Virus genome (UHGV): UHGV-0057547
Source: a virus
DNA: 64,000 nt
Reading direction: 5' to 3' (one strand)
How positions within the stretch are numbered: the stretch's first letter is position 1; the number at the start of each line of letters is the position of its first letter. The position numbers and the translations under genes are program-made. The notes below the pieces were generated by a model. It had not been told where the DNA came from. It ran no database searches and saw only the letters and a list, made by a program, of their open reading frames with translations. Shown piece by piece: positions 1 to 42,978 of the stretch.

Positions 1-84
1 AGAAATAGTCTAGTCACTCTAGGAAACTAGGTGCTTAGAATTAACTAAGGTTTATAGTGTAGCGACTATAAGTAAATATTAACG
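1..84 (+). mobile_element. 3' terminal part of a group I-like intron (5' part lies upstream of window)
   Basis: S-like element GAAATAGTCTAG at 2-13. Terminal hairpin TATAGTGTAGCGACTATAA. Ends ...ATATTAACG like the element termini at 23026 and 41131, which share the GTGCTTAGAATT(A/G)ACTAAGGTTTATA...GCGA(C/T)TATAAATAAA block. Confidence 0.55.
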
Positions 85-261
85 TTTGTTTTGCCTTTTG
101 CGAAGCAGTGGAAATTAGCTAAAAATGATGTTTTAGGGGGAGAAGAAGGAATAGAAGATTATGAAGATGTAGATAAAATATACAATGAACAAAATAAGAA
201 TAATACCGAAGTAGAAAATGAAGTAGAAGATGAAGTAGGTGAGGAAAACAATGACAAGTAG
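85..261 (+). CDS. 3' exon (C-terminal acidic tail) of an upstream intron-containing gene, partial
   Basis: Open frame from the presumed 3' splice site at 84/85 to TAG at 259-261. E/D-rich tail. Identity unknown; the position before TerL suggests small terminase or another packaging gene. Confidence 0.4.
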   Translation, partial: FVLPFAKQWKLAKNDVLGGEEGIEDYEDVDKIYNEQNKNNTEVENEVEDEVGEENNDK

Positions 262-401
262 TCCAAAAGAAAATGTTGAAAAAGAAGAAATACTTTCCGA
301 TGATGTCATGAAAAGTCCTCATAGAAAAAGAAGGAATTTATCCCAAAGAAAAAAAGATAGATTAAATGAAGGTATGAAAATATGGACTGCATTTTATAGG
401 T
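251..401 (+). CDS. terL: large terminase subunit, exon 1 (N-terminus; 3' boundary approximate)
   Basis: ATG 251 with SD GGTGAGG about 8 nt upstream. Basic N-terminus ...GMKIWTAFYR. The frame hits TAG at 410, just before the intron core (P element at 450), so the exon must end at or before about 409. Joining to 748 gives ...FYR-L-NIHRFALDFLGL... Confidence 0.45.
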
Positions 402-747
402 TAAATATTTAGCTTATTTTATTAGGTAACTAATAATCTAAACCCTTTGAATTGCTGGAAAGGACTTAGAGCCTATTGAACTACAACGTGACTAGAAATG
501 GTGAGCGTGAATGTTTAAAAATCAATAGGATTGTTTAATCAGCAGGTAAGATTCTAAATTGCTATAAACAATATGAATAAACTTCAACGACTAGAGTTTA
601 AACTCGTAGGCTACAAGTTATTGGTAGTCGAAGCGGAGGGCATCCTTTCATAGGATGAAGATATAGTCTGTTCTTATATGAAAATATAAGTAGTTCTTTA
701 TTTAATAAAGAACAGTATGTATGTAGCGAATACATATGAACATTTAG
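402..747 (+). mobile_element. group I intron (family A), ORF-less, TerL intron 1
   Basis: P AATTGCTGGAAA 450-461. Q AATCAGCAGG 537-546. R CTTCAACGACTAG 582-594. S AAGATATAGTCT 658-669. Terminal hairpin TATGTATGTAGCGAATACATAT then GAACATTTAG|. The 5' splice site is uncertain (about 400-425). Confidence 0.75.
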
Positions 748-863
748 TAAACATCCATAGATTCGCACTGGATTTTTTGGGACTTAATTTATATCCGTTC
801 CAAATTATATTGCTTTATATGATGAATATAATGTATAGCACTTGCCTAATATGTGCAAGGGGT
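748..863 (+). CDS. terL: large terminase subunit, exon 2 (Q-motif/Walker A region)
   Basis: Frame from 750 reads NIHRFALDFLGLNLYPFQIILLYMMNIMYSTCLICARG. LYPFQ resembles the TerL adenine-binding Q motif (L.PWQ). The exon ends ...AGGGGT, the family B insertion context. Confidence 0.6.
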
Positions 864-937
864 AAATAGATATGCTCCATTATATAGAAATATATAATTA
901 AAAATCAATCAAAATCGGTAAAAGTCTAAGTTTAATA

Positions 938-966
938 TTTACATTTTTTAGGAATATAAGTATAAT
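938..966 (+). promoter_or_regulatory. intron-internal sigma70-like promoter for the HNH ORF
   Basis: TTTACA 938-943, 17-nt spacer, TATAAT 961-966. SD AAAAGGGGTG then ATG 988. Confidence 0.5.
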
Positions 967-987
967 ATATAAAAGGGGTGAGATTAA

Positions 988-1773
988 ATGGGTAAAATAA
1001 TAAATAAATATGATAGAATAGGTGAAACATCGATATCAAAAGAAGGATATGAAATGAAAATAATTGAATATATTGATGCAAGACATATTCTAATAGAATT
1101 TCAAGATGAACATAAAACTAGGTTAATGTGTCAATATGGTGACTTTAAATGTAGAAAAAATATTAAAAATCCATATCATCCAGCAGTATATAAAATAGGG
1201 TATTTGGGACAAGGTAAATATAATAAAAAAAATTATCAACGTATATATTGGACATGGAAAGATATGCTGAGAAGATGTTATAGTGAAGAGTACTTAAAAA
1301 GAGAACCTTCTTATAGAGGCTGTTGTGTTTGTGAAGAATGGCATAATTTCCAAAACTTTGCTAAATGGTATGAAGAAAATTATTATGAAGTTGAGAATCA
1401 AAGAATGCATTTAGATAAAGATATACTTGTAAAAATGAATAAAACATATAGTCCACAAACTTGTATATTTGTTCCACAAATAATTAATAGTTTATTTATA
1501 ACATCTAAGGCTATAAGAGGAGAATATCCTATTGGCGTTTCAAGAAAACAGAATAAATTAATTGTTCAAATTAATAAATATGATGAAAATATGAAAAAAT
1601 CAAAATATACAATGGTAAAAAAATTTGAAATAGAAGAAGTAAATGAAGCATTTTTTTGCTATAAAACAGAAAAAGAAAATGAAATAAAGAAAAGAGCCGA
1701 TTTATTTAAAGAATATATTCCAAAAAAATTGTATAATGCATTATATAAATATAAAATTGAAATAACAGATTAA
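988..1773 (+). CDS. HNH-family homing endonuclease with AP2-type DNA-binding region (intron-encoded)
   Basis: WTWKDMLRRC...YRGCCVCEEWHNFQNFAKW and H-LDKD...N...C blocks as in phage HNH/AP2 homing endonucleases. Lies entirely inside family B element 864-2032. Confidence 0.55.
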   Translation: MGKIINKYDRIGETSISKEGYEMKIIEYIDARHILIEFQDEHKTRLMCQYGDFKCRKNIKNPYHPAVYKIGYLGQGKYNKKNYQRIYWTWKDMLRRCYSEEYLKREPSYRGCCVCEEWHNFQNFAKWYEENYYEVENQRMHLDKDILVKMNKTYSPQTCIFVPQIINSLFITSKAIRGEYPIGVSRKQNKLIVQINKYDENMKKSKYTMVKKFEIEEVNEAFFCYKTEKENEIKKRADLFKEYIPKKLYNALYKYKIEITD

Positions 1774-2032
1774 ATATGATAATACCGAGGTAAGATAGAA
1801 AATTAAAAAGTTCTATCCACTGTAGAGCATAGAGATTGAACCTTTGTAAGAACTATTATACAATAGTTCTTTTTTAATTGCAAAGAATAAAATATCTCCA
1901 AGAGTGATTGACACCTTACTATTAAGTTAAAGGTGAAAATATATGCCATACTGAGCTAGAATTGACTAGCTGATGAAAATGAGGGAAACCTCCAGAGGTT
2001 AAGATAAAAAACTTAACGTTAATAATGAATAG

Positions 2033-2125
2033 TTATCGAAATCGTATATGACAGCAATATTCCTTTGTTGTAAAGCAATATTATATCCAAATAGTTTAAT
2101 TGTAGTTTCTTGTTCAACTAAGGAG
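2033..2125 (+). CDS. terL: large terminase subunit, exon 3 (3' boundary approximate, 2125-2142)
   Basis: Only open frame from 2033 reads LSKSYMTAIFLCCKAILYPNSLIVVSCSTKEQARYN. The junction with exon 2 gives CARG-LSKS, a deviant Walker A P-loop. The exon ends in AGGAG next to the family A 5' hairpin. Confidence 0.5.
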
Positions 2126-2338
2126 CAAGCGAGATATAATGTCTCCTATATTAAGTGATTAGTATAGCAAATCTTTTGAATTGCTGGAAACTCCTAAAGC
2201 TCAATTCACTACAACGTAAGGTTAAATCCTAAGCGTGAATGTTACGAAAGTAGAAAAAAGTAATTGAGATGGTATAAGGTTAAATCCTAAGTACTTTTAC
2301 AATGGACAATCAGCAGGTAAGATTTATATTTATTTTAC

Positions 2339-2368
2339 TTTACTTTTAATAATTAATTTCGTATAATT
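2339..2368 (+). promoter_or_regulatory. intron-internal sigma70-like promoter
   Basis: TTTACT 2339-2344, 18-nt spacer, TATAAT 2363-2368, SD GGAGGTG, ATG 2392. The same about 80-nt block recurs at 6497-6579 and 21421-21503. Confidence 0.5.
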
Positions 2369-2391
2369 TAAGTAAATGGAGGTGAAATATT

Positions 2392-3327
2392 ATGGCATGG
2401 AAATATGAAGATGTGAAAAAGTATGTAGAATCATTTGGTTATAAATTAATATCAAAAGAATATAAGACTTGTAAAGATAAACTTCATTTAATGTGTCCTA
2501 ATGAAAGTGATTTTATTGTAAGATTTGATAATTTTAAAAATGCTAAACAACGTTGTAAATGTGATAAATGTAAAGGTAGAAATCCAAGAATGTTTTCTTA
2601 TGAATATGTAAAAGAATACATAGAAAAAGAAGGGTATAAATTAATATCAAAAGAATACAATGGAAATAAAAAACGTATAGAATTAGAATGCCCAAATGGT
2701 CATAAATGGAAAGTAAGATTTACTGATTTTAAAAATGGAAGAAGATGTTATTATTGTTCTTGTTGTTATAAACCTACCATTGGAGAAATTAGAATGAGAT
2801 TATCAAAATATGGTTATACATTGTTATCTGAAGAATATAAAAATGCAAATGAAAAAATTAATGTAAAATGCCCTAATGGTCATAAATATCCTACTACATA
2901 TCATAATTTTGATAATGGTAAAAGATGTCCATACTGTTATAATAAATATAGTAAAGGTGAGTATAGACTTATAAATTTATTTAATAATTATAAAATAAAC
3001 TATAAACATCAATATATTTTTAATGATTGTAGAGATATAAATCCTTTGCCATTTGATTTTTATTTATATGATTATAATTGTTGTGTAGAATTTGATGGAG
3101 AAGGGCATTATGAACCTAGAAATTGGAATGGAGCTTCAGATGAAAAAGCAATAGAAACATATAAAATAACGGTATTACATGATAAAATTAAAACACAATA
3201 TTGTAAGGATAATAGCGTAAAACTCATAAGAATACCATATTGGGAATTTAATAATATAGAAAACATTATTTGTCAAGAATTAAATATTAAAAGAAAACAA
3301 AGAAGAAAAGGTAATAAATTAAAATAA
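2392..3327 (+). CDS. intron-encoded homing endonuclease: 4 tandem Zn-ribbon-like modules + C-terminal Vsr/DUF559-like PD-(D/E)XK nuclease
   Basis: Repeated module Y(V/I)E..GYKLIS.EYK.....L...CPNGH.....F.NFKNG.RC..C x4. C-terminal block PLPFDFYLYDYNCCVEFDGEGHYE...KLIRIPYWEFNNIENII. Confidence 0.6.
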   Translation: MAWKYEDVKKYVESFGYKLISKEYKTCKDKLHLMCPNESDFIVRFDNFKNAKQRCKCDKCKGRNPRMFSYEYVKEYIEKEGYKLISKEYNGNKKRIELECPNGHKWKVRFTDFKNGRRCYYCSCCYKPTIGEIRMRLSKYGYTLLSEEYKNANEKINVKCPNGHKYPTTYHNFDNGKRCPYCYNKYSKGEYRLINLFNNYKINYKHQYIFNDCRDINPLPFDFYLYDYNCCVEFDGEGHYEPRNWNGASDEKAIETYKITVLHDKIKTQYCKDNSVKLIRIPYWEFNNIENIICQELNIKRKQRRKGNKLK

Positions 3328-3484
3328 ATATGAATAAACTTCAACGACTAAGTATCCTAGTAGTCTAGGTAGAGGAAGAGGTCTTATATTAATAAGATTG
3401 TGATATAGTCTGCTCTCATGCGAAAGCATGAGCAGTTCATAAAAGAACGGATAGAATAGTAACGATATTCTATTGAACATAAGG

Positions 3485-3617
3485 AATCTTATAAAGGAGA
3501 AGATAGCTAAAGAGCTATGTTCTCAATCGAAAATGTTAAATAGAGAAATTGCTAAAGTAGTCACTGGTACTAATGAAACAGTGGTTATCTTTAACAATGG
3601 TAGTACCATTCAAGTTT
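3485..3617 (+). CDS. terL: large terminase subunit, exon 4
   Basis: Frame from 3485 reads NLIKEKIAKELCSQSKMLNREIAKVVTGTNETVVIFNNGSTIQV until TAA 3617-3619. Consistent with the post-Walker-A region of TerL ATPases. Confidence 0.5.
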
Positions 3618-3826
3618 AATGCTTTGCACATTGAGTAATTAGTGTGTATAACCGATTGAATTGCTTGTAAATCCTAAAGCTAACTAAACTACAACGTAAC
3701 CTGAAAAGGTAAGCGTGAATGTAGCGAAAGCAGAAAAAATTAGTTAGATGGTATATGGTTAAATCCTAAGTACTTTTACAATGGAAGTCTAGCAGGGAAG
3801 ATTCTAAAATTATTTAAATTAAATAT

Positions 3827-3855
3827 TTGACTTTTAATAATATAAGTTGTATAAT
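3827..3855 (+). promoter_or_regulatory. intron-internal sigma70-like promoter
   Basis: TTGACT 3827-3832, 17-nt spacer, TATAAT 3850-3855, SD GGAGGTG, ATG 3878. Confidence 0.55.
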
Positions 3856-3877
3856 ATAAATAAATGGAGGTGATAAT

Positions 3878-4834
3878 ATGTCAAAAATAATGTGGGATGA
3901 AAAATCAATAAAAAAATTTGTTGAGCAATATAATCATGAATTCATTGAAATTATAGAATTTAATAACATAAGAAGTTTAATAAAAATTAAATGTAAAAAT
4001 AAAAAACACAAACCATTTGAAATAAAATTTACATCATTTAGACAAACTATGCTAAAAAATGGAAATTCTTGCAAAGAATGTAAAAAAGAAGCAAAAATGT
4101 TAAAAAGAGAAGATGTAGAAAACCTAATTAGAGAAAGAGGACTTATTTGGCTAGAGGGAGAGTATATAAGTAATGATACAAAAAATTTATTAGTATGGTG
4201 TGGAAATATTAATCATGAACCATTTTTAACAAGTCAAAATTATATATTATGTAATAATGGTAATAGTTGCAAAAAATGTGGTATAGAAAATAATGCAAAT
4301 AACAAAAGACTTTCATATGAGTATGTATATAACTATATAAAAAATGAGGGTGATGAACTATTATCAAAAACTTATGTAAACAATTCACAAAATTTAAAAA
4401 TTAAATGTGGTAAATGTAATAATGTATTTGAAACTTCATTTGGGCACTATCAAAATAAAGATAGAAGATGCTTATGTAAAGCTCAATCAAGAGGAGAATA
4501 TGAAATTAAACGAATATTTGATAAATATAATTTAATTGAAAATGTAGATTATGAATGTCAAAAAAAATACGAAGGATTAATTGGGGTTGGTGGTAGAAAA
4601 CTTTCTTATGATTTCTATATCAATAATACATTAATAGAATATCAAGGTTCTTATCATGATGGAACTGCTAGAAAACAAACAGATGAAGGATATGAGATAC
4701 AAAAGGAACATGATAAAAGAAAAAAAGATTATGCTAAAAATAATAACATTAATTTATTAGAGATATGGTATTGGGACTTTAATAATATAGAAAATATACT
4801 TATAGAAAATTTTAATTTAAATAATAATGAATAA
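3878..4834 (+). CDS. intron-encoded homing endonuclease, Zn-ribbon modules + divergent Vsr-like nuclease domain
   Basis: CKECK/CKKCG/CGKCN Cys pairs in repeated modules. C-terminal block KLSYDFYINNTLIEYQGSYHDG...LLEIWYWDFNNIENILIENF. Confidence 0.55.
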   Translation: MSKIMWDEKSIKKFVEQYNHEFIEIIEFNNIRSLIKIKCKNKKHKPFEIKFTSFRQTMLKNGNSCKECKKEAKMLKREDVENLIRERGLIWLEGEYISNDTKNLLVWCGNINHEPFLTSQNYILCNNGNSCKKCGIENNANNKRLSYEYVYNYIKNEGDELLSKTYVNNSQNLKIKCGKCNNVFETSFGHYQNKDRRCLCKAQSRGEYEIKRIFDKYNLIENVDYECQKKYEGLIGVGGRKLSYDFYINNTLIEYQGSYHDGTARKQTDEGYEIQKEHDKRKKDYAKNNNINLLEIWYWDFNNIENILIENFNLNNNE

Positions 4835-4999
4835 CCTTCAACGAACAAGTATCCTAGTAGTCTAGGTAGTGGTCGGTATCCTTAGTAAAGGATAATGATA
4901 TGTTCTGCTCTCATGTGAAAGCATGAGCAGTTTATGTGATTAATTAAAATTCACAAATAAACGGTATAAGGTATAACGAACCTTATATGAACACAAATG

Positions 5000-5028
5000 C
5001 AGTAAACGCTTCTCAAAATACAAGAGGT
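5000..5028 (+). CDS. terL: large terminase subunit, exon 5 (29-nt micro-exon, arginine-finger region)
   Basis: Reads (S/L)VNASQNTRG. It ends in AGAGGT, the same GGT context as exon 2. Joined to exon 6 it gives NTRG-LRCHVLVVDEY, the (S/T)xRG...hhhhDE arrangement common in TerL ATPases. Confidence 0.5.
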
Positions 5029-5044
5029 AAATTTTTCATATCAC

Positions 5045-5073
5045 TTTACATTTTTTAATAATTAGAGTATAAT
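5045..5073 (+). promoter_or_regulatory. intron-internal sigma70-like promoter for the LAGLIDADG ORF
   Basis: TTTACA 5045-5050, 17-nt spacer, TATAAT 5068-5073, SD AAGGGGG. Confidence 0.5.
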
Positions 5074-5086
5074 ATAAACAAAGGGG

Positions 5087-5956
5087 GTGATTGAATTGAA
5101 ATGGACTAAGGATATGGAGCAATACTTAATTGATAATTATAATAAATTAACTATTGAAGAATTAGCTAAAAATATAGGAGTAACAAAATCCTCAATAATA
5201 AATAAAGCTTTTTCATTAAAAATAACAAATAATGTTAAAAATAAAGATAGAGGAAATATTAATATATTTAAAAATATAAATTCAGAAGAAAGTGCTTATT
5301 GGTTAGGATTTATATATGCTGATGGTTATATAGTTAAAAGTGAAAATGATAAAAAACATCATAATTATGAATTAGGTATAGAACTTCAAGAATCTGATAT
5401 TTCTCATTTGAAAAAATTTAATAAAATATTTAATGATTATTATAAAATAAAAACAAGAATCAGAAAAATGGATTCATTGGATATTTTAAATGGAAATGAA
5501 GTTTCAAATAGATTAAATAAAACTTGTTTGATAAGAATATATAATAAAGAAATAGTTAATGATTTAATAAAAAATAATATTGTTCAAAATAAAACTAATT
5601 CAGATATATTTCCTATTATAGATGATGACAATATGTTTTTACATTTTTTAAGAGGATATATTGATGGCGATGGTTCTTATGTTGTTGATAGTAAAAATAG
5701 ATACATAATATCAATTCAAGGTAATAATAAAAAATGTTTTGAATTTATATCTAATAAGTTATTAACAAGTTTTAATATTAATTCATATATAACAAAAGAT
5801 AAAACAGGTTGGAAATTAAATATAAGAAAAAAAGATGATGTTTTAAAATTAATAGATTTAATGTTTAATAATTCAAATATTTATTTAGATAGAAAATATG
5901 AGAAAGTAAAAGATATGAAAAAAGCCGTCTTTAATAGAAATATTAAAGATAATTAG
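5087..5956 (+). CDS. LAGLIDADG homing endonuclease (two LAGLIDADG motifs); start uncertain (GTG 5087, TTG 5096 or ATG 5111)
   Basis: AYWLGFIYADGYI and LRGYIDGDGSY motifs. C-terminus NRNIKDN is shared with the second LAGLIDADG ORF at 31569. Confidence 0.7.
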   Translation: MIELKWTKDMEQYLIDNYNKLTIEELAKNIGVTKSSIINKAFSLKITNNVKNKDRGNINIFKNINSEESAYWLGFIYADGYIVKSENDKKHHNYELGIELQESDISHLKKFNKIFNDYYKIKTRIRKMDSLDILNGNEVSNRLNKTCLIRIYNKEIVNDLIKNNIVQNKTNSDIFPIIDDDNMFLHFLRGYIDGDGSYVVDSKNRYIISIQGNNKKCFEFISNKLLTSFNINSYITKDKTGWKLNIRKKDDVLKLIDLMFNNSNIYLDRKYEKVKDMKKAVFNRNIKDN

Positions 5957-6275
5957 AGAACAAAATCGGTCATAGTAAATCGTAAGATTAAGCTGATAAG
6001 AGAGCCTAAGTCCTTATAGGATATGGTAATACCGAGGTAAGATAGAAAATTAAAAAGTTCTATCCACCGTAACGCATAGAGATTGAACCTTTGTGAGAAC
6101 TATTATACAATAGTTCTTTTTTAATTACAAAGAATAAAATATCTCCAAGAGTGTTCTCCACCTTATCATTAAGTTGAAGGTGAAAATATATGCTGGACTG
6201 GGTATGAATTGACATACCATAATGCGAGGAAACTCCTAGAACTAGAGGATAAAAAGCCTTTAGGATAACAAAACG

Positions 6276-6325
6276 TTAAGATGCCATGTACTCGTGGTTG
6301 ATGAGTATAGAATGATACAAGGAGT
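6276..6325 (+). CDS. terL: large terminase subunit, exon 6 (50-nt micro-exon with Walker B)
   Basis: Reads LRCHVLVVDEYRMIQG(V). VLVVDE is a Walker B hhhhDE motif. It ends with the GGAGT 5' strand of the family A P1 hairpin. Confidence 0.6.
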
Positions 6326-7865
6326 AATATATAGCTCCCTATGTTTATAAAAAGCATAGAAAAACTCTTTAATTGCTGGAAACTCCTAAAGTCCTATAAA
6401 CTACAACATGATTAGAAATAATGAGTGTGAATGTTACGAAAGTAGAAAAAATTATAGGAATGGTATATGGTTAAATCCTAAGTACTTTTACAATGGACAA
6501 TCAGCAGGTAAGATTTATATTTATTTTACTTTACTTTTAATAATTAATTTTGTATAATTTAAGTAAATGGAGGTGATAAAATGTTAAAATATAATAATGA
6601 TTATATTATCAATTATATAAATGAAAATTATAAAAATTTTAAAATAGTAAGTATAGATGGTAATGGAAAGGAAGCTATTGTAACTTTATGGTGTGGCGTT
6701 AGTGGTCATAAACATATACAATGCACATTTGCTAATCTTTTATATAAAGATAGTTTTCACTGTAGAGAATGTAAAAAAGATGATAAGATAAACGAAATAA
6801 AAAAGATTATAGGTGATGAATATCAAATAATCTCAATAGATTATATTAGTAATGATTGGATAAGAAGTAGAGCTATATTATGGTGTGGAATAGAAGGACA
6901 TGAATATATTGATGTATCTTTTAAATCAATAATAAATGGAAATATTATTGGATGTAAATTATGTAGAAAAAATAAACATATATTAAAAATAAAAGAAAAT
7001 GTAGAAAAAGTTAATAAAAAATTAATAGAAGTAAAAAAATATAATGAAAAAGATTATCACAAATCAAGAATAATAGTATCTTGTGGTAATGAAAAACATG
7101 AATTAATAGAGACTTCTTTAAATAAAATTATAAATTCAAACGTTAAATGTAAGGATTGCATAAAAGAAGATAATATTAATAAAATGATGCTATATATAAA
7201 TTCTACTCAATACAAATTTAATAAAATTGTAAAATATTGTGAATCAGATTATATAAAAAGTATGGTAGAAATAACATGTCCAAAAGATGAAACCCACATA
7301 TTTACAATGAGATTTTCTAATTTTAAATATGAAGGTAAAAGATGTCCTCATTGTGGTATGACTTATGGTGAACAAGAAGTTGCAAATGTATTAAAAAGAT
7401 ACAATATAAAATATAAATTTCAATATAAATATAAAGATTGTAGATTTATAAATCCTCTTCCTTTTGATTTTTATTTACCTGATTATAACATATTAATTGA
7501 ATACGATGGTAAACAACATTATGAATCAGTAGATTTATTTGGTGGAGAAAAAGGTTTTAAATATACAAAACAAAATGATGGAATAAAAAATCAATACTGT
7601 AAGAATAATAATATAAAATTAATAAGGATACCATATTGGTGTTTTAATAATATAGAAGAAATATTAATTAAAGAATTAAAAGTAAACATAAATAAATATG
7701 AATAAACTTCAACGACTAGAACGTAAGTTCGTAGGGTGTAAGTGATTGACACTCGAAATGGGAGTTACCTAATAATAGGTAGTGATATAGTCTAGTCTCA
7801 TATGAAAGTATGAGCAGTTCATAAGAGAACGTACATAACGTAGCGAATTATGTAGAATATAACGG
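6326..7865 (+). mobile_element. group I intron (family A) with homing endonuclease gene; TerL intron 6
   Basis: P1-like GGAGT/GCTCC hairpin 6321-6337. Hairpin CTATGTTTATAAAAAGCATAG. P 6371-6382. Q 6499-6508. ORF 6581-7705. R 7707-7719. S 7783-7792. Terminal hairpin TACATAACGTAGCGAATTATGTA then GAATATAACGG| at about 7864-7865. Confidence 0.75.
6581..7705 (+). CDS. intron-encoded homing endonuclease, Zn-ribbon modules + Vsr/DUF559-like nuclease
   Basis: Modules with WCG..GH...C.F....CReCKK and CK.C. C-terminal block PLPFDFYLPDYNILIEYDGKQHYE...KLIRIPYWCFNNIEEILIKEL. Preceded by promoter TTTACT at 6530-6535 and TATAAT at 6553-6558. Confidence 0.6.
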   Translation: MLKYNNDYIINYINENYKNFKIVSIDGNGKEAIVTLWCGVSGHKHIQCTFANLLYKDSFHCRECKKDDKINEIKKIIGDEYQIISIDYISNDWIRSRAILWCGIEGHEYIDVSFKSIINGNIIGCKLCRKNKHILKIKENVEKVNKKLIEVKKYNEKDYHKSRIIVSCGNEKHELIETSLNKIINSNVKCKDCIKEDNINKMMLYINSTQYKFNKIVKYCESDYIKSMVEITCPKDETHIFTMRFSNFKYEGKRCPHCGMTYGEQEVANVLKRYNIKYKFQYKYKDCRFINPLPFDFYLPDYNILIEYDGKQHYESVDLFGGEKGFKYTKQNDGIKNQYCKNNNIKLIRIPYWCFNNIEEILIKELKVNINKYE

Positions 7866-8021
7866 TTTTGATACATTAAACTCAGTATTAAGACCATTCT
7901 TAAACTGTGTTAGAATACCAAAATTTAAGAATAGAGATGATGGAAAATATGCAGATTATCCATCAGAGGAAAACCAAGAGATTTATTTGAGCAGTGCATT
8001 AAAACTAGTGCAAACTATGGT
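7866..8021 (+). CDS. terL: large terminase subunit, exon 7
   Basis: Reads (V/G)FDTLNSVLRPFLNCVRIPKFKNRDDGKYADYPSEENQEIYLSSALKLVQTM(V). Ends ...ATGGT before the family B start GAAATGTAGATA. Confidence 0.5.
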
Positions 8022-8341
8022 GAAATGTAGATAGCTATAGTTGAGTATCAATCAAAATCGGTCATATGTATAGTGATATACATGGTAAGAAAGACTAAGT
8101 GTTAATTTAACATAAGTTGATACCGAGGTAAGTTAAGGAACTAAAAAGCCTTATCCACTGTAACGCATAGAGATTGAACCTTTGCAAGAACTATTATATA
8201 ATAGTTCTTTTTTAATTGCAAAGAATAAAATATCTCCAAGAGTGATTGACACACGCTACATTTATTGTGTGAAAATATATGCTGAACTTATAGGAAACTA
8301 TAAGAACTAAAGGATAAAAAGCCTTTAGGATAACAATTTGG
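8022..8341 (+). mobile_element. family B intron-like element, ORF-less (about 320 nt); TerL intron 7
   Basis: AAAATCGGT 8054-8062, GACTAAGT, ATACCGAGGTAAG 8120-8132, CTCCAAGAGTG, GTGAAAATATATGC. Terminal hairpin CTAAAGGATAAAAAGCCTTTAG then GATAACAATTTGG| at 8341. The minimal size is consistent with a ribozyme-only element. Confidence 0.6.
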
Positions 8342-9428
8342 GTTCGAGAATCATTGGAGTTATGACCTCTATTCTTCCCATGTTAAGAAAATGTTAGCAG
8401 GTGATGATTATTTTGTATGTAATTTACCTTATCAATTATCTGCTTATCATGGAATATTAACTAAAAAAAGAATACAAGATATTTTATCAGATGAGAATAT
8501 GTCGGAAATATCATTTATGATGGAATTTGAAGCATTATTTTATTCTGATAAAGATACTAGTTATTTTAAATCAAGTGACATATTACCTTGTAGAACATTG
8601 GAATATGCATGGTATCCTCCAACACCTGAGGAATATTATAGAAATAAAAATAAAGAGAAAAAGAGTTATCATTTGAAGAAATTAAATGATAAAGAACTTA
8701 GAATAATTAGTTGTGATATAGCCTTAATGAATAGTAAAAATGGACATGACAACGATAATGCCGTATTTACTTTTATAAGAAGTATTCCAAAGAATCAAAA
8801 TTATATATCACAAGTTTTATGGCAGGAAACCTATGATGGTTGTACAGCTAAACAATTAGCATTAAATATAAAAAGATTATATTTTGACACTCAAAGTGAT
8901 TATATAGTACTAGATACTGCCGGTAATGGGATATCTGTGTTAGATGAGTTAGGTGAATATACAACAGATGTAGAAAGAGGAATAGTTTATCCTCCATTGA
9001 AAGCAATGAATGATGAAAAATATGAAGAACGTTGTGGTTATTCTGAGGCACAAAAATCTATATTTTGTGTTAATGGTAACTCAAAGTTTAACCACGAAAT
9101 TGCAGTAACCCTTAAAACAGCATTTCAAAATAAAACCATTAGATTATTAAAAACACAATTTGAAGCAGATGACTTTATAGAAGGATATCATAAGATGTCT
9201 CCTAAAGAACAAGCTGACAAATTAATGCCTTATATTCAAACTTCTTTAATGCAAGATGAAATAACTCAATTGGAATATGAAATAAAAGATTCTTATATTA
9301 AACTTTATGAAACCACAGGTAAACGTAAGGATAGATATTCAAGTTTAGCTTATGGTAATTATTTTATAAGAGAAAGAGAAAAAAAATTAAAGAAAAAGAA
9401 AAAAGGTGGATTAGCTAATCTATGGTAG
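8342..9428 (+). CDS. terL: large terminase subunit, exon 8 (C-terminal RNase H-like nuclease domain)
   Basis: The frame is open from 8334 with no start codon before it. IISCDIALMNSKNGHDNDNAVFTFIR ... VLDTAGNGISV match the terminase nuclease-domain acidic motifs. The listed ORF start at 8391 is an internal Met. Confidence 0.75.
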
Positions 9429-10364: not shown

Positions 10365-11679
10365 AACATATAGCTCCCTATGTTTATAAAAAGCATAGAA
10401 AACTCTTTTAATTGCTGGAAACTCCTAAAGCTCAATTCACTAAAACATAATCTGAAAATGATAAGTGTGAATGTTACGAAAGTAGAAAAAAGTAATTGAG
10501 ATTACCCAAGGTTAAATCCTAAAGGTGAATGAATGGACAATCAGCAACCAAGATTTTAAGTTTAATTCATTGATTTTTAATATAATATAAAATAAAGTGA
10601 GGTAATTAATATAGCATTAAAATGGACTGAAGAAAAAATAATAGAATTTATAAATAATGAAAATTATATAGTAAAAAAAATAATAAGTGGAATTGGAAAA
10701 GAAACGAGATTATTGGTATGGTGTGGTAATCCTAATCATAAACCATATAAAGTTATTTTTAATAATTTTAAAAGAGGAACAAGATGTCAGTCTTGTTATG
10801 ATGAAAGAAGAAGAAAATGGACTGATGAAATTATTAAAGAATATTTAGAAAGTTATAAATATAAACTAATAGAAATTATAAAATCTAAAGGCGTTCAATC
10901 TATTGTAAAAATAAAATGTCCTAAATGTGGATATGTATATACTATTAAATTTGATACATTTAGAAATGGTCGTAGATGTATGCAATGTTTTCTTAAAGAA
11001 AATAGAATTAGTGAAGAAGAAATAAAAAAAATAATAAAAGATAATAAAGATATATTAATAGATATTGAGTATCATAGTTTAGATAGTATTTTATATTTAT
11101 ATTGTAATAAATGTAAAAAAAATTATCCTATTACATTTTATTGGTATTTAAAAGGCGGAAGATGCAAGTTTTGCAAAGAATCAAGAGGGGCTAGAAAAAT
11201 AAGAGAATATTTAGAAAATAAACAATATAATTTTAAACAAGAATTTAGAATTAAAGAATGTAGATATAAATTTCCATTACCATTTGATTTTATGGTTACT
11301 ATAAATGATAATATTATTTTAATAGAATTCGATGGGTTAGAACATTATGAACCTATTGAGTATTTTGGAGGTATAGTTAAATTTAATGAAAGAAAAAGAA
11401 ATGATAATATTAAAAATCAATATTGTAAAGATAATAATATAAAACTTATAAGGATTCCATATTGGGAATATGACAACATAGATGAAATATTAAATAAAGA
11501 ATTAAACTTAAAATAAGGTTCAACGACTAGAGCGTAAGCTCGTAGAGTGTAAGTGATTGACACTCGAAATGGAGAGTATCTAATAATAGGTAGTGATATA
11601 GTCTAGTCTCATATGAAAGTATGAGCAGTTCATAAGAGAACGGATTAGGAGTAGCGACCCTAATTGAATACAACGTTTG
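10365..11679 (+). mobile_element. group I intron (family A) with homing endonuclease gene; portal intron
   Basis: P 10410-10421. Q variant AATCAGCAACC 10539-10549. ORF 10713-11516. R 11518-11530. S 11595-11604. Terminal hairpin ATTAGGAGTAGCGACCCTAAT then GAATACAACG(TTTG)|. The 3' splice site is 11675 or 11679 depending on the donor phase. Confidence 0.75.
10713..11516 (+). CDS. intron-encoded homing endonuclease (Zn-ribbon modules + Vsr-like nuclease); true start probably upstream (non-ATG, about 10608-10611)
   Basis: The frame is open from 10608. SD GTGAGGT at 10596-10602 is followed 8 nt later by ATA GCA TTA AAA TGG ACT GAA GAA, parallel to the 21491 ORF. C-terminal block FPLPFDFMVTINDNIILIEFDGLEHYE...KLIRIPYWEYDNIDEIL. 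Confidence 0.55.
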   Translation: MVWCGNPNHKPYKVIFNNFKRGTRCQSCYDERRRKWTDEIIKEYLESYKYKLIEIIKSKGVQSIVKIKCPKCGYVYTIKFDTFRNGRRCMQCFLKENRISEEEIKKIIKDNKDILIDIEYHSLDSILYLYCNKCKKNYPITFYWYLKGGRCKFCKESRGARKIREYLENKQYNFKQEFRIKECRYKFPLPFDFMVTINDNIILIEFDGLEHYEPIEYFGGIVKFNERKRNDNIKNQYCKDNNIKLIRIPYWEYDNIDEILNKELNLK

Positions 11680-15737: not shown

Positions 15738-17070
15738 AACTTAGTTTACTAGACAGCCCCCTATGTTTGTAAAAAGCATAGCAAATCCTTTTAATTGCTG
15801 GAAACTCCTAAAGCTCAATTCACTACAACGTAAGGTTAAATCCTAAGCGTGAATGTTACGAAAGTAGAAAAAAGTAATTGAGATTACCCAAGGTTAAATC
15901 CTAAAGGTGAATGAATGGACAATCAGCAGGGAAGATTTTAATTAACACTTAATTTTTTATAAGTTTATGAGTATAATATAAATAAGTGGAGGTGATGAAA
16001 ATGACAAGAAAGATTTGGAATGAAATTACAATAAAAGAATTTATAGAAAATGAAACAAATTATAAATTCATATCAATGGTTAAATTAAATGGAATGAAAT
16101 CAATAGTGCTAGTATGGTGCGGTAATACTAATCATAAACCTTATAAAGTTCGATTTGATGCATTTAAAGGTACTTCTAAAAAAGAAGGAACGAGATGTGA
16201 ACAATGTAGAAGAGAAAAGGATACTATTTGGACTAAAGATGAAATTATAAAATATGTAGAATCTCAAGATTATAAATTTATAAGATTTGTAAAATTTAAT
16301 AAATATGCAAGTATAATAGAAATTCAATGTAATAAAGGACACGAATCATATGAAACATACTTTAGTAATTTCTATAATAATAGAAGATGTTTTCAATGTC
16401 ATATAATATGGTCTAAAAAAGATATTATTAATTTTATAGAATCTCAAAATTATAAATTTATAAGATTTATAACATATGAAAAAAATAATAGTTTAATAGA
16501 GATAAAGTGTCCTAAAGGACATATGAATCAAGTTAGATTTAGAAAATTTAAAGAAGGAACTAGATGCACAGAATGTAATAAGTCTAAAGGTGAGGAAAAA
16601 GTAAAAGATATATTAAAAGAAATGTGTATAGATTTTAAATCACAATACAAATTCAAAGATTGTAAATGTAAAAAAGAGTTGCCATTTGATTTTTACATAC
16701 CTTCATTAAATATTGCAATAGAATATGATGGAATACAACATTTTGAAATATTACCACATTGGGGTGGTATTGATAAACTTATAGAAACTAAAATACATGA
16801 TGAAATAAAAACACAATATTGTAAAAGAAAAAGAATAAAACTTATTAGAATTCCTTATTGGGAATTTAAAAATATAGAAAACATACTTATAAAAGAATTA
16901 GTGTTAAATTAGAATAACCTTCAACGACTAGAGCATAAGCTCGTACACTCAAGTGGGTGGAAATGGAGGATACCTAGAAATAGGTAGTGATATAGTCTTG
17001 TCTCATGTGAAAGCATGAGCAGTTCATAAGAGAACGGATTAGGAGTAACGACCCTAGTCGAAAATAAACG
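15738..17070 (+). mobile_element. group I intron (family A) with homing endonuclease gene; major capsid intron
   Basis: Hairpin CTATGTTTGTAAAAAGCATAG. P 15793-15804. Q 15921-15930. ORF 16001-16912. R 16918-16931. S 16989-16998. Terminal hairpin ATTAGGAGTAACGACCCTAGT then GAAAATAAACG| at 17070. The acceptor is ambiguous (17050, 17070 or 17092). Confidence 0.75.
16001..16912 (+). CDS. intron-encoded homing endonuclease (Zn-ribbon modules + Vsr-like nuclease)
   Basis: ATG 16001 is 7 nt after SD GGAGGTG. TATAAT at 15972-15977. C-terminal block ELPFDFYIPSLNIAIEYDGIQHFE...KLIRIPYWEFKNIENILIKEL. Confidence 0.6.
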   Translation: MTRKIWNEITIKEFIENETNYKFISMVKLNGMKSIVLVWCGNTNHKPYKVRFDAFKGTSKKEGTRCEQCRREKDTIWTKDEIIKYVESQDYKFIRFVKFNKYASIIEIQCNKGHESYETYFSNFYNNRRCFQCHIIWSKKDIINFIESQNYKFIRFITYEKNNSLIEIKCPKGHMNQVRFRKFKEGTRCTECNKSKGEEKVKDILKEMCIDFKSQYKFKDCKCKKELPFDFYIPSLNIAIEYDGIQHFEILPHWGGIDKLIETKIHDEIKTQYCKRKRIKLIRIPYWEFKNIENILIKELVLN

Positions 17071-21253: not shown

Positions 21254-22596
21254 AATTTGCTCCCTATGTAAGTAAATTGCATAGCAAATCCTTTTAATTG
21301 CTGGAAACTCCTAAAGCCTTGCAAACCACAACGCAACTTGAAAAAGTAAACGTGATGGTGACGAAAGTAGAAAAAATTGTAAGGATTACCCAAGGTTAAA
21401 TCCTAAAGGTGAATGAATGGACAATCAGCAGGTAAGATTTATATTTATTTTACTTTACTTTTAATAATTAATTTCGTATAATTTAAGTAAATGGAGGTGG
21501 TAGATATAAAATGGACAGAAGATAGAATTAAAGAATATGTTGAAAATCAAGGATATACTTATATAAAAAGAATTGAAGGAAAAGCAAGTATGTCGATTAT
21601 AGAAGTTTGGTGTGGAAATCTTAATCATAAATCTTATAGGGTTATGTTTAAAAATTTTAAAGGTAATAAAGCAAAAAAACCAACAAGATGCCCATATTGT
21701 AGTAAAAATAAAAAATTAACCATTGAAGAAGTAAGAGTATTTGTTGAAAAATATGATTTTAGTTTATTATCTGTAGAATATATTAATAATAGAACTCCAT
21801 TAACACTACAATGTAAAAATGGACATATATTTTCAATAAGATTAGATAATTTTAAACAAAGTTTAAAATGTCCAATGTGTTATAGACATTATGGTGCTTA
21901 CACCGAAGATGAAGTTAAGCAATACCTTGAAAGTTTTGGTTATGAATTACTGAATAAATATATAGATATACATAAAAAAATAATAATTAAATGCCCTAAA
22001 GGTCATATTTATAAAACTTCATTTAATAGTTTTAAAAATAATGGAACTAGATGTTCTATTTGTAGAAAATCAAAAGGTGAAGAAAAAATATCTAAAACAT
22101 TAAAAGAATTAAAAATAAAATTCATAAGTCAATTTGTATTCGATGATTGTCAATATAAAACATATCTTCCATTTGATTTTTATTTACCTGAATATAATAT
22201 ATTAATTGAATACGATGGGATTCAACACTATGAACCTGTAGACTTTGGTGGTAAAGGAAATGAATGGGCAAATAAACAACTCGAATTAACAAAAATAAAA
22301 GACAATATAAAAACACAATATTGTGAAAATAATAATATAAAACTTATAAGAATATCTTATTGGGAATTTGATAGCATAGAAAATATATTAAGTAAAGAGT
22401 TAAAAGTAAGAAAATAAATATGAATAAACTTCAACGACTATTCCGTAAGGAAGTAAAGCCACAAGCTATTGGTGGAAGAAATGGAGGATACCTAGAAATA
22501 GGTAGTGATATAGTCTGTTCTCATGTGAAAGCATGAGCAGTTTATATTGAATGAGTATAAACGATGTATGTGTAGCGAACATATGTGAACACAAAG
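21254..22596 (+). mobile_element. group I intron (family A) with homing endonuclease gene; major tail protein intron 1
   Basis: P 21295-21306. Q 21423-21432. ORF 21491-22417. R 22429-22440. S 22507-22516. Terminal hairpin ATGTATGTGTAGCGAACATAT then GAACACAAAG| at 22596. Confidence 0.75.
21491..22417 (+). CDS. intron-encoded homing endonuclease (Zn-ribbon modules + Vsr-like nuclease); start ambiguous
   Basis: The listed ATG is part of the SD ATGGAGGTGG. The likely initiation is about 21497-21506 (GTG or ATA). C-terminal block YLPFDFYLPEYNILIEYDGIQHYE...KLIRISYWEFDSIENILSKEL. Confidence 0.55.
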   Translation: MEVVDIKWTEDRIKEYVENQGYTYIKRIEGKASMSIIEVWCGNLNHKSYRVMFKNFKGNKAKKPTRCPYCSKNKKLTIEEVRVFVEKYDFSLLSVEYINNRTPLTLQCKNGHIFSIRLDNFKQSLKCPMCYRHYGAYTEDEVKQYLESFGYELLNKYIDIHKKIIIKCPKGHIYKTSFNSFKNNGTRCSICRKSKGEEKISKTLKELKIKFISQFVFDDCQYKTYLPFDFYLPEYNILIEYDGIQHYEPVDFGGKGNEWANKQLELTKIKDNIKTQYCENNNIKLIRISYWEFDSIENILSKELKVRK

Positions 22597-29631: not shown

Positions 29632-29709
29632 AATTGATTTGCCGTTTATATTAGAAATAATATAAATTATTAGAGGGCAAAATCGGTGAAGACTAAATAT
29701 TTTAATTTA

Positions 29710-29738
29710 TTTACTTTTAATAAAAAATATGGTATAAT
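29710..29738 (+). promoter_or_regulatory. intron-internal sigma70-like promoter
   Basis: TTTACT 29710-29715, 17-nt spacer, TATAAT 29733-29738, SD GGAGGGG, ATG 29762. Confidence 0.5.
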
Positions 29739-29761
29739 AATATAAAATAGGAGGGGATATA

Positions 29762-30469
29762 ATGAGAAGATTGAGTTATGAATATGTAAAAGAGTATATA
29801 GAAAATTTTGGTTATAAATTATTATCAAAAGAATATAAAAACAATAAAACTGAATTAGAAATACAATGTAATGATTGTGGGAATATATTCCATATGAGAT
29901 TTAACAATTTTAAAGATGGTAAACATAGATGTGAATGTAAGAGCAAACCATTAGTTTTGACATATGAATATGTTAAAAATTATATTGAATCATGTGGATA
30001 TAAATTATTATCAAAAGAATATAAAAATAATGCAACCTATTTATTGGTTTGGTGTGGAAATCCTAATCACAAACCTTATAAAGTTAAATTTAATAATTTT
30101 AAAGATTGTAATAGTAGATGTCCTGAATGTAATACAACTTCAAAAGGTGAAGAAAAAATAAAAGAAATTCTAATAAAATATAATATAAAATTTAATCAAC
30201 AATATTTATTTAATGATTGTAGAAATACAAGACCACTTCCATTTGATTTTTATTTACCACAGTATAATATTACAATAGAATATGATGGGAGACAACATTA
30301 TAAATTAGATTGTTTTAATATGAATTTATTAGATTTAATGAATTTGAAATATAATGATAATAAAAAAACACAATATTGCAATAATAATAATATAAAACTT
30401 ATAAGAATACCATATTGGGATTTTAATAATATAGAAAAAATACTTAAAAAAGAATTAAAAGTAAATTGA
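29762..30469 (+). CDS. intron-encoded homing endonuclease (3 Zn-ribbon modules + Vsr-like nuclease)
   Basis: Same family as 2392. C-terminal block PLPFDFYLPQYNITIEYDGRQHYK...KLIRIPYWDFNNIEKILKKEL. Confidence 0.6.
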   Translation: MRRLSYEYVKEYIENFGYKLLSKEYKNNKTELEIQCNDCGNIFHMRFNNFKDGKHRCECKSKPLVLTYEYVKNYIESCGYKLLSKEYKNNATYLLVWCGNPNHKPYKVKFNNFKDCNSRCPECNTTSKGEEKIKEILIKYNIKFNQQYLFNDCRNTRPLPFDFYLPQYNITIEYDGRQHYKLDCFNMNLLDLMNLKYNDNKKTQYCNNNNIKLIRIPYWDFNNIEKILKKELKVN

Positions 30470-41476: not shown

Positions 41477-42978
41477 AAATTAGCTCCTTTTACTAAGTAA
41501 TTAGTATTAAAACTCATTGAATTGCTGGAACTTCCTAAAGCTAACTAAACTACAATATGGCTAGAAATGGCGAATATGAATGTGGCGAAAGCAGAAAAAA
41601 TTAGTTAGATATTCATATGGTTAAATCCTAAGTGAATATAAATGGATAATCAGCAGGTAAGTGCCTAAATTTATTTTATAAAATAATTGACTTTTAATAA
41701 GATAAAACGTATAATATAAGTAAAGAAAGGGGTTGAGATGATGAAAAAACATGATTATAAATTTATTAAAGAATATGTTGAAAGTTTTGGATATAAATTA
41801 TTATCAACAGAATATAAAAATGCTAATACTAAATTAAAAATAGAATGTCAAGAAGGACATATGTTTGAAAGAACATTTAGTAAGTTTAAACAAACTCAAA
41901 ATTGTCCATATTGCACTAATACTAGAAAATGGAATATTTTAGAAATAAAAGAGTATTTAAAAAACATAGGTTATACATTATTAAGTACAGAGTATAAAAA
42001 TAATCAAACCAAATTAGATATGATTTGTTCAGAGGGACATAAAATACAAATGACTTTAGGAAATATCCAACAAGGTAAAAGATGTCATATATGTTCAAGA
42101 AAAACAGCTTCAGAAAAAAGAAAACATGATTATGAATTCGTTAAGCAATATATTGAAAATGAAGGTTATAAATTATTATCCAAAACATATATAAATCAAG
42201 ATGAAAAATTAAAAATAAGATGTTCGAAAGGTCATATATTTTTAATGAGTTTTTGTAAATTTAAACAAGGTCAAAGATGTCCTCAATGTTGTAAAAATAA
42301 AAAAATGTCTCATAAAGAATTTTTAGAAAAATTCTATAATCAAAATTACAATACTGAAAATATAGAAATATTGAGTGAATATATAAATGCTAAGACGAAA
42401 ATAAAATGTAAATGTCTAAAAGACGGTTGTATTTGGTATGTTATACCTAATAGTTTACTAAACGGAACTGGTTGTCCTCAATGTAACGAATCTAAAGGAG
42501 AAAAAAGAGTTGCTAAATATTTAGATAGTAGAAATATAGAATATGAAAGACAATATAAATTTAATGATTGTAAAAGTAACAAAGAGTTACCTTTTGATTT
42601 TTATATACATAGTTTAAATATAGCTATAGAATATGATGGTGGACAACATTATATGATAGTAAACCATTTTGGAGGACTTAATGGATTTATAACTACTAAA
42701 ATACATGACACTATAAAAACACAATATTGCAAAAATAACAATATTCGTTTAATAAGAATACCATATTGGGATTTTGATAATATAGAAAATATACTAAGTC
42801 AATTATTAAATATAAATATGAATAAATAAGGCAAAACTTCAACGACTATATATACTAGTAGTCTAGTTAGTGGTGAGCATCCTTATGGGATGATGATATA
42901 GTCTACTCTCATGTGAAAGCATGAGCAGTTCATAAGAGAACGGTATAAGGTTTAACGAACTTTATATGAATATTAAGG
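41477..42978 (+). mobile_element. group I intron (family A) with homing endonuclease gene; TMP intron 6
   Basis: P 41520-41531. Q 41648-41657. Promoter TTGACT 41687-41692, 17-nt spacer, TATAAT 41710-41715. ORF 41738-42829. R 42837-42849. S about 42891-42903. Terminal hairpin TATAAGGTTTAACGAACTTTATA then GAATATTAAGG| at 42977-42978. Confidence 0.75.
41738..42829 (+). CDS. intron-encoded homing endonuclease (4 Zn-ribbon modules + Vsr-like nuclease)
   Basis: C-terminal block ELPFDFYIHSLNIAIEYDGGQHYM...RLIRIPYWDFDNIENILSQLL. Confidence 0.6.
   Translation: MMKKHDYKFIKEYVESFGYKLLSTEYKNANTKLKIECQEGHMFERTFSKFKQTQNCPYCTNTRKWNILEIKEYLKNIGYTLLSTEYKNNQTKLDMICSEGHKIQMTLGNIQQGKRCHICSRKTASEKRKHDYEFVKQYIENEGYKLLSKTYINQDEKLKIRCSKGHIFLMSFCKFKQGQRCPQCCKNKKMSHKEFLEKFYNQNYNTENIEILSEYINAKTKIKCKCLKDGCIWYVIPNSLLNGTGCPQCNESKGEKRVAKYLDSRNIEYERQYKFNDCKSNKELPFDFYIHSLNIAIEYDGGQHYMIVNHFGGLNGFITTKIHDTIKTQYCKNNNIRLIRIPYWDFDNIENILSQLLNINMNK

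Follow-up and report, generated by a model that had tools for sequence, protein, structure and literature searches.

The 64,000-nt stretch of the virus genome UHGV-0057547 analysed here (hereafter, the window) belongs to a large, AT-rich phage of human-gut metagenomes and makes up its structural-gene module. Many of the group I introns that interrupt these genes hold an open reading frame (ORF) for a putative homing endonuclease. We consider it likely that these endonucleases are driven, from within the structural genes, by cassettes that carry a phage-type promoter, and that a promoter block common to three of the introns is kept alike by recombination. Taken as a whole, this is the best explanation we have for the sequence features and their statistics, for homology to a promoter found throughout the phage lineage, for the insertion and deletion of whole cassettes among relatives, and for the mosaic make-up of the introns.

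A fixed promoter geometry ahead of intron ORFs

The first 43 kb of the window (27.8% G+C) contains at least 18 group I introns, 13 of type A and 5 of type B, in addition to a cut 3′ end at 1-~85; seven of them interrupt terL (~251-9428). A homing endonuclease gene (HEG) is carried by 12 introns, each time in a peripheral loop of the ribozyme, between P6 and P6′ in type A and at two different 5′-proximal sites in type B. By their family domains the intron ORFs are putative homing endonucleases. All 12 are endonuclease-like: nine are of the Zn-ribbon-plus-nuclease phrog_559 type, with matches to phrog_559/9084/7140 (annotated "HNH / homing / intron encoded" endonuclease), two are LAGLIDADG proteins (ORFs 5096-5956 and 31569-32351, with LAGLIDADG_3 above the Pfam cut-off), and one is a phrog_953 HNH enzyme. 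The cassettes share one order: an AT-rich stretch, the -35 hexamer, 17 nt, TATAAT, about 8-11 nt, a GGAGGTG-type Shine-Dalgarno sequence (SD), 5-8 nt, and the start codon. They are listed below, together with the three copies of the shared block.

938..1773 (+): cassette in type-B intron 864-2032; -35 TTTACA at 938, -10 at 961-966, SD GGGGTG at 975-980; ORF 988-1773 (+), phrog_953 HNH endonuclease
2307..2384 (+): block copy 1, terL intron ~2138-3481; Q/P4′-P6 5′ strand at 2307-2323, then the AT-rich stretch, then promoter and SD (-35 TTTACT at 2339-2344, -10 TATAAT at 2362-2367, SD GGAGGTG at 2378-2384)
2392..3327 (+): ORF of 311 aa in the P6 loop after block copy 1; Zn-ribbon/CapR repeats and a C-terminal nuclease, phrog_559 type
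3827..4834 (+): cassette in type-A intron ~3625-5003; -35 TTGACT at 3827, -10 at 3850-3855, SD at 3866-3872; ORF 3878-4834 (+), phrog_559 type
5045..5956 (+): cassette in type-B intron ~5029-6281; -35 TTTACA at 5045, just 16 nt past the 5′ splice site, -10 at 5068-5073, SD at 5083-5089, TTG start at 5096
6498..6575 (+): block copy 2, terL intron ~6340-7865; -35 at 6530-6535, -10 at 6553-6558, SD at 6569-6575; T replaces C at block position 54
6581..7705 (+): ORF of 374 aa after block copy 2, phrog_559 type, 38% identical to the ORF at 2392
10553..11516 (+): decaying cassette in type-A intron ~10365-11674; ORF phrog_559-like
15937..16912 (+): cassette in type-A intron ~15739-17071; -35 TTAATT (3/6), -10 TATAAT at 15973-15978, SD GGAGGTG at 15988-15994, ATG at 16001
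21422..21499 (+): block copy 3, intron ~21270-22590, on a different ribozyme backbone; -35 at 21454-21459, -10 at 21477-21482, SD at 21493-21499
21491..22417 (+): ORF after block copy 3, phrog_559 type
29710..30469 (+): cassette in type-B intron ~29680-30700; -35 TTTACT at 29710, -10 at 29733-29738, SD at 29750-29754; ORF 29762-30469 (+), phrog_559 type
31508..32351 (+): cassette in type-B intron ~31473-32638, within a tape-measure-like gene; -35 TAGACA, -10 at 31531-31536, SD at 31556-31560
39968..40913 (+): cassette in type-A intron ~39743-41132; -35 TTGACT, -10 at 39991-39996, SD at 40008-40013; ORF 40020-40913 (+), HNH, phrog_559/119
41687..42829 (+): cassette in type-A intron ~41495-42960; -35 TTGACT, -10 at 41710-41715, SD at 41728-41732; ORF 41738-42829 (+), phrog_559

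An earlier note on this DNA had proposed that every intron ORF has its own near-consensus σ70 promoter and listed nine. All nine are found, joined by a tenth at 21454-21482 that belongs to the third copy of the block, and each consists of a -35 hexamer, a 17-nt spacer and a perfect TATAAT followed by a GGAGGTG-type SD. The -35 hexamers are TTGACT, TTTACT and TTTACA, as had been listed, and also TAGACA, which had not and which occurs only at 31508; the proposed TATAAT is present throughout, and the proposed spacing of 17-18 nt narrows to exactly 17 nt in all ten. The sites match the σ70/σA hexamers at 10-11 of 12 positions. Their -10 boxes end 22-25 nt before the start codon (once 33 nt), and the SD lies 5-8 nt before it. 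The word "every" was too strong, since two of the 12 intron ORFs are exceptions. At 10553-10617 the promoter is internally deleted, having collapsed to TTGATT, 7 nt and TAATAT, with ATA at the expected start (10617); at 15937-16001 the -35 element is degenerate. The ORF of the 10553 cassette is still open and homologous to its paralogues despite the decay of its promoter and start.

Strings resembling TTGACA and TATAAT are common in a genome of 28% G+C, and the intron sites might be nothing else. At loose thresholds promoter-like sites are indeed as frequent as in shuffled sequence (151 versus 151.9; 102 versus 117.5), as expected at this base composition. A loose scan is uninformative in AT-rich DNA, which makes it necessary to use a stringent class tied to ORF starts, defined here by at least 4/6 matches at -35, a 17-nt spacer and a perfect TATAAT. 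The plus strand has 15 such sites, ten of them 22-33 nt upstream of start codons of intron ORFs; put differently, a stringent promoter stands at 10/12 intron-ORF starts versus 0/24 ordinary gene starts, where 0.054 would be expected with the minus-strand rate as background (Poisson P ~ 5.5e-20). A second retrieval, run on the window and its relatives, used the ribozyme signature alone and left the promoter pattern out: 23 of the 24 distinct type-A cassettes so obtained have a match of at least 10/12, a 17-nt spacer and an SD. The relatives, here and below, are contigs in IMG/VR and in human-gut metagenomes that share 95-99% identity with the window, the related genomes having been fetched in part. 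Conservation also covers the spacer and the region after the -10 box, where the intron sites agree with 75 distinct promoters outside introns. Chance is thus effectively refuted as an explanation, and we leave it next to no probability.

A promoter class of the phage lineage

What the predicted intron promoters reproduce is a stereotyped promoter of the lineage itself, TTGACTTTTAATAA-N8-GTATAATATAAGTAAA, a genome-wide consensus that the earlier note overlooked; they are not generic σ70 look-alikes. A search of IMG/VR and of the window with a pattern built on the intron sites (TTKACTTTTAATAA-N8-GTATAAT-N-TAARTAAA) gave 108 matches, 6 in the window and 102 in a handful of related phage contigs of 147-198 kb. 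Flanks sufficient for scoring were available for 98 of the sites in relatives, and 85 of these are non-intronic (75 distinct sequences); they share additional conserved positions, TAGTATAATATAAGTAAAtaA, and directly ahead of 35 of the 75 distinct sequences stands a perfect hairpin with a T-run. The genes that follow encode an AAA_24 ATPase, Pol III alpha, an FtsH-like protease, a guanylate-kinase-like protein, a phosphoesterase, ORF6N, TnpB and a σ70-family protein (TIGR02937 at cut-off, PDB SigH match). Within the structural module of the window and its relatives, by comparison, the pattern matches at intron sites only, and there one promoter class serves two intron classes, at least three insertion points and three endonuclease families. 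Since the intron promoters match a phage-wide class, the evidence for their function is stronger than hexamer similarity would provide.

Two of the non-intronic copies have neighbours of independent interest. In relative L024, a 249-aa σ70-family protein with a C-terminal NUMOD1-like motif begins at ~165, directly after the promoter at 103-140, and may be regarded as a candidate late-gene σ factor. In relative L006 (- strand), the Pol III alpha-like ORF that follows the promoter at 4064 seemingly contains an intein-like insertion, a CFTEDALVHT... segment after the PHP/polymerase region.

We posit that host RNA polymerase with its primary σ factor would start transcription about 7 nt after TATAAT, giving endonuclease mRNAs with short leaders (15-18 nt) that are timed with the non-structural (early/middle) genes. 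Endonuclease expression would then not depend on late transcription or splicing of the interrupted genes and would probably precede that transcription. The sequences suggest early or middle timing through the host primary σ factor by inference only; for the late structural genes the driver is probably a different one, perhaps a phage σ.

The promoters could instead be real and yet belong to the late program, or depend on a phage factor such as the σ70-family protein, so that they fire together with the structural genes. Conservation does run past the hexamers (TTTAATAA after -35, ATAAGTAAA after -10), which is unusual for plain σA promoters; the extended motif has no match in 185,579 bacterial and archaeal genomes, a search that consequently identified no host or prophage; the lineage encodes a σ factor of its own; and the intron endonucleases of T4 use middle or late phage promoters. 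Set against this, the hexamers and the 17-nt spacing come close to the ideal for primary σ factors; genes for replication, nucleotide metabolism and regulation, the σ-factor gene itself among them, follow the non-intronic copies; and the motif is found at 0/24 ordinary structural genes of the window. The closest precedent in a phage of Gram-positive bacteria is, moreover, an early promoter. We therefore judge late or factor-dependent timing to be unlikely and retain early or middle expression by the host enzyme as the working model.

Promoter and endonuclease gene come and go together

Most introns of the window are polymorphic for presence or absence among the relatives, and so are their cassettes. 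In seven of eight cassette polymorphisms, promoter, SD and ORF are gained or lost together. Introns 402-747, ~7998-8340 and ~13130-13440, which are ORF-less in the window, have all three inserted in relatives; in the L022 orthologue of 402-747, for example, the P6 loop holds a 1048-nt cassette of promoter, SD and ORF. Introns ~2138-3481, ~3625-5003 and ~41495-42960 have lost all three in relatives, the second in L058, which is without the whole cassette (3801-4832), and the third in L041, likewise without the whole cassette. At ~6340-7865 the cassette has been exchanged whole for a different promoter and an HNH ORF. The exception is ~29680-30700, where three relatives keep the promoter without the SD and the 708-nt ORF. 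These solo promoters are as follows.

6835-6872 (- strand) of L054: promoter without SD or ORF
631-668 of L052: promoter without SD or ORF
L062: promoter without SD or ORF

The promoter thus belongs to the endonuclease cassette and not to the ribozyme, a view that the ORF-less introns of the window bear out: their cores are complete, their P6 loops measure 11-17 nt, and they have no promoter. With the phage promoter class and the fixed geometry, joint gain and loss makes it very likely that the predicted sites are, as the earlier note proposed, promoters dedicated to the endonuclease genes.

Transcripts started at these promoters would probably extend across the intron's 3′ half and reach the exons that come next. 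Between the stop codons of the ORFs and the next exon there are only weak terminator-like P9 hairpins with poor T-tails and no convincing terminator, which makes read-through into downstream late exons plausible. It is conceivable that the promoters have been co-opted as internal boosters of downstream structural genes, the endonuclease being incidental. All of them are oriented with the host genes, three relatives keep one in an ORF-less intron, and in T4 some essential genes are served by promoters that lie within the seg/mob genes upstream of them. An RNA begun inside the intron lacks the 5′ half of that intron, however, and cannot splice there, so that it would deliver a truncated exon without an SD; the promoter disappears with the ORF in seven of the eight polymorphisms; phages with intron-less or ORF-less alleles manage without it; and an SD and start codon at a fixed distance are what a promoter built for the endonuclease ORF would have. 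We regard co-option as highly improbable and keep to promoters that serve the endonuclease genes.

The SD is also part of the pre-mRNA. Its predicted accessibility (mean P(unpaired)) is lower in the pre-mRNA context in 8/11 cases, an uncontrolled trend for which there was no shuffled control, and no dedicated SD-sequestering hairpin of the T4 kind is seen in the intron cassettes examined for SD accessibility.

A promoter block shared by three introns

The earlier note described an essentially identical segment at 2306-2388, 6497-6579 and 21421-21503. The block is real and has three copies, although those limits are shifted by 1 nt and slightly overstate its length. As a 78-nt pattern taken from the note and tried on the window and on 100 shuffles, it finds exact matches at 2307-2384, 6498-6575 and 21422-21499 and is absent from all of the shuffles. 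Aligned in pairs, as the note had advised, the copies agree at 77-78 of 78 positions. Ungapped extension gives a common tract of 84 nt (2301-2384, 6492-6575 and 21416-21499) with a single C/T site, and for the two terL copies alone the identical tract is 108 nt long (2278-2385 and 6469-6576); identity ends sharply just after GGAGGTG. The block opens with 17 nt that form Q and the 5′ strand of P6. The overlap with Q that had been noticed is borne out by the consensus fold, in which P4 is formed by AATCAGCAGG and the P element UUGCUGG.

Around the block, similarity falls away. The three introns are 72-80% identical over the upstream 150 nt of ribozyme, their ORFs share 57-63% of nucleotides and 37-39% of amino acids, and their 3′ ribozyme halves are 64-67% identical, so that flanks of 57-80% identity surround a block that is 99-100% identical. 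Counting the window, IMG/VR and metagenome contigs, six different endonuclease N-termini follow it. It stands on two ribozyme backbones, each of which also occurs with other promoter variants, and all four combinations exist; the C/T variant does not track insertion site; and nearest neighbours are discordant across the 5′ ribozyme, promoter, ORF and 3′ ribozyme segments. The block is present, too, at orthologous sites in related phages. "Very recent intragenomic copying," as the note had it, is not supported, in view of the orthologous sites in relatives, the six ORFs, the two backbones and the discordant segments. The block is probably better read as a recombination or gene-conversion tract, the shared 5′ module of an exchangeable cassette, than as the product of intron duplication. 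On this model, for which we infer recombination from the mosaic patterns, a conserved Q/P6 strand joined to one promoter variant would be kept 99-100% identical by recombination or gene conversion.

Selection is the other force that might preserve such a tract, either on a regulator site or on an RNA element for the ribozyme or for translational control. The block is unchanged at orthologous sites in relatives, its first 17 nt are ribozyme core, and I-TevI of T4 represses its own promoter through an overlapping operator. Cassettes of the same class nevertheless carry clearly different sequences at this place and ORF-less introns do without the block, so that neither the ribozyme nor the promoter class needs this exact sequence. 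The three endonucleases are just 37-39% identical, the C/T variant is spread across sites, not arranged by site, and the block lies on two backbones with discordant segment trees. Nor are the promoters closer to their own homing sites than to others: best ungapped matches are 12-15/20 to the cognate exon junction and 11-14/20 to non-cognate ones, and an I-TevI-like operator was accordingly rejected. The block was likewise rejected as a ribozyme element, ORF-less introns with complete cores having none. Selection on the block is, in our estimate, improbable, and we continue with recombination as the better account.

A second sequence behaves in a comparable way. The ORF-less alleles of three introns (L022 from 7475, L058 from 22, L041 from 9410) share a compact P6, GGGAAGTCC(C/T)(T/A)TTAAAATGGGAAACC, which is apparently a second homogenized P6 variant besides the promoter block. 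The block on one side and the conserved P6′/P7 that follows the stop codons on the other look like possible homology arms flanking exchangeable ORFs. We offer, tentatively and as a possibility that we do not favor, that the P6-loop cassettes form an intragenomic exchange system, with Q/P6 plus promoter and SD as the left arm and P6′/P7, ATATGAATAAACTTCAACGAC, as the right arm, shuffled by homologous recombination among about 13 paralogous introns and among co-infecting phages. If so, (i) different endonucleases, or the empty compact P6, would be swapped among introns; (ii) any incoming endonuclease would automatically be wired into the early program of the phage; and (iii) the accumulation of at least 18 introns in one structural module would be easier to explain.

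The ORF behind block copy 3 differs from the others. It has no ATG after the SD; its sole in-frame ATG (21491) is contained in AAATGGAGGTG, some 2 nt away from where transcription is predicted to start, and similarity with the other ORFs begins at 21506. It would be either a pseudogene or the product of a nearly leaderless mRNA. Relatives have a different ORF, with a normal ATG, at this site.

Several observations weigh against the model of dedicated early promoters and a recombining block. Two of the 12 cassettes have no intact promoter, and the solo promoter of three relatives shows that a promoter can occur apart from an endonuclease gene. The early or middle class is assigned only from the kinds of gene that follow the non-intronic copies. 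Conservation beyond the hexamers could mean recognition by a phage factor or phage σ in place of σA alone, late translation from read-through RNA is possible because the pre-mRNA contains the SD, and selection might, in principle, account for the sameness of the block.

Identity and fold of the introns

Rfam 15 finds no intron in the whole window at the gathering threshold, and none in 1-8500 at E<=10, an interval that includes an ORF-less intron. Given the other evidence for introns, we read this miss of Intron_gpI as a limit in the sensitivity of the model for introns of this kind. Their identity is established instead by intron-less alleles, splice-site rules and covariation. Automated annotation, missing them, would show fragmented genes only, which explains the fragmented gene calls.

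Exact limits for two introns, 402-747 and 864-2032, come from intron-less alleles in relatives: U is the last base of the 5′ exon (...GGT), G is the last base of the intron (...AG), and excision restores the terL reading frame. Eight further introns are missing from relatives, where the exons are contiguous, and the spliced, intron-free N-terminus from relative L026 matches the terminase large subunit. Some exons are very short, about 24 nt (~5004-5028) and about 60 nt (~22590-22650). Members of the second intron class and the ORF-less reference are given here.

864-2032, ~5029-6281, ~7998-8340, ~29680-30700 and ~31473-32638: type-B introns, with the same splice-site rule as type A
402..747 (+): ORF-less type-A intron in terL, limits exact, P6 loop without promoter

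For type A, to which the folding was confined, RNAalifold on ten introns with cassettes and ORFs removed recovers P4 UUGCUGG/CAGCAG (P/Q) and P7 GACUA/UAGUC (R/S), with compensatory changes in 32/57 pairs of the consensus; core motifs could be mapped in 13 introns. Over 120-140 nt, the 5′ parts of type-A introns show 80-90% identity with Kayvirus intron regions that carry no annotation, and type-B introns resemble intron regions of AR9/PBS1-like and other phages. The type-B cores contain a hairpin with a T-run, AGAACTATT-ATACA-ATAGTTCT-TTTTTT (1845-1885, 6095-6130 and 8180-8215), which resembles an intrinsic terminator and also scores as promoter-like on both strands; as the ORF-less copy has it too, it is probably a ribozyme helix.

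The phage and its surroundings

Structural genes recognized in the window through PHROGs include terL, portal, tape measure and tail proteins; Pfam gave no match to the structural proteins of the window, and PHROGs were needed for portal, tape measure, tail and terL alike. A scan of the window for tRNA genes found none. Megablast against INPHARED phages returned short matches to intron cores only and no close genome. Two hints at the host were obtained. A tail protein has ~40% identity to Clostridioides difficile phage phiCD211, and a protein-based scan located one relative, 76% identical, in a "Bacilli bacterium" metagenome-assembled genome, with no introns and no promoters in the 7.7 kb examined. 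A search of the literature for an intron-rich lineage of gut phages found no description. Between the end of the tape-measure gene and the next tail gene lies a free-standing HNH/EndoVII-like ORF (43457-44164), preceded by a hairpin and an SD and by no consensus promoter, and missing from relatives L041 and L044.

Relation to known systems

An intron endonuclease has to be produced at a suitable time and to leave the interrupted gene undisturbed, and T4 and one Kayvirus case solve this with promoters inside the intron. The window offers what appears to be a systematic solution, one promoter/SD module at ten sites inside late genes that are themselves without such promoters. It also offers a natural series (intact, start-less, promoter-deleted and solo-promoter states) in which promoter capture, cassette exchange and endonuclease decay can be followed, and which bears on the cost of early sense transcription across late genes and on the promotion of endonuclease shuffling by shared flanks. 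In a lineage of uncultured gut phages, finally, the intron promoters and their extended consensus should aid the annotation of transcription units.

The intron endonuclease system of T4 td, nrdD and nrdB was reportedly described by Gott et al. in 1988. In these introns, which encode I-TevI together with I-TevII and I-TevIII, these endonucleases have middle or late promoters of their own, and hairpins at the ribosome-binding site (RBS) and autorepression have also been described (PMC2988022). The window resembles T4 in placing the ORF in a peripheral group I loop behind its own phage-type promoter, with presumably its own timing, and its SD recalls the consensus SD about 8 nt before the start of the T4 endonuclease ORFs. 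The arrangement of promoter and host gene is the opposite, however: T4 has middle or late promoters in early or middle genes, whereas here a σA-type, probably early or middle, promoter sits in late structural genes. T4 furthermore employs a hairpin that sequesters the RBS and an operator similar to the homing site, and neither a dedicated hairpin nor operator-like similarity is found here. Free-standing seg/mob endonuclease genes of T4 have been called "promoter-less cassettes" (PMC2988022), a pattern that ORF 43457-44164, free-standing and without a consensus promoter, fits and that contrasts with the intron-borne cassettes.

Nearer to the window is Kayvirus (vB_SauM-515A1/phage K), in which the lysK intron carries ksaI with the early promoter p72 and transcripts detected by RNA-seq run into 3′ lysK (PMC7698491). 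In both phages a group I intron splits a late gene and contains an endonuclease with its own promoter, p72 being an early promoter of a phage of Gram-positive bacteria. Kayvirus provides one documented case per genome, backed by RNA-seq, whereas the window has 10 intact cases in 43 kb, known from sequence, and combines two intron classes and three endonuclease families with one stereotyped promoter. Several related introns in one gene are a feature shared with Staphylococcus phage Twort, as are similar conserved elements, UUCAACGACUA ... GAUAUAGUCU. Landthaler and Shub reportedly described in 1999 that orf142 of Twort contains several closely related group I introns (IA2-type), which are not known to contain ORFs; here, in contrast, seven introns split terL, most with promoter-equipped endonuclease cassettes. 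Both functional proposals of the earlier note, endonuclease expression apart from the structural transcript and read-through into late exons, thus have direct experimental precedents in T4 and Kayvirus, and the novelty lies in scale and modularity, not in principle: an arrangement already known from those phages is found here on an unusually large, modular and recombining scale.

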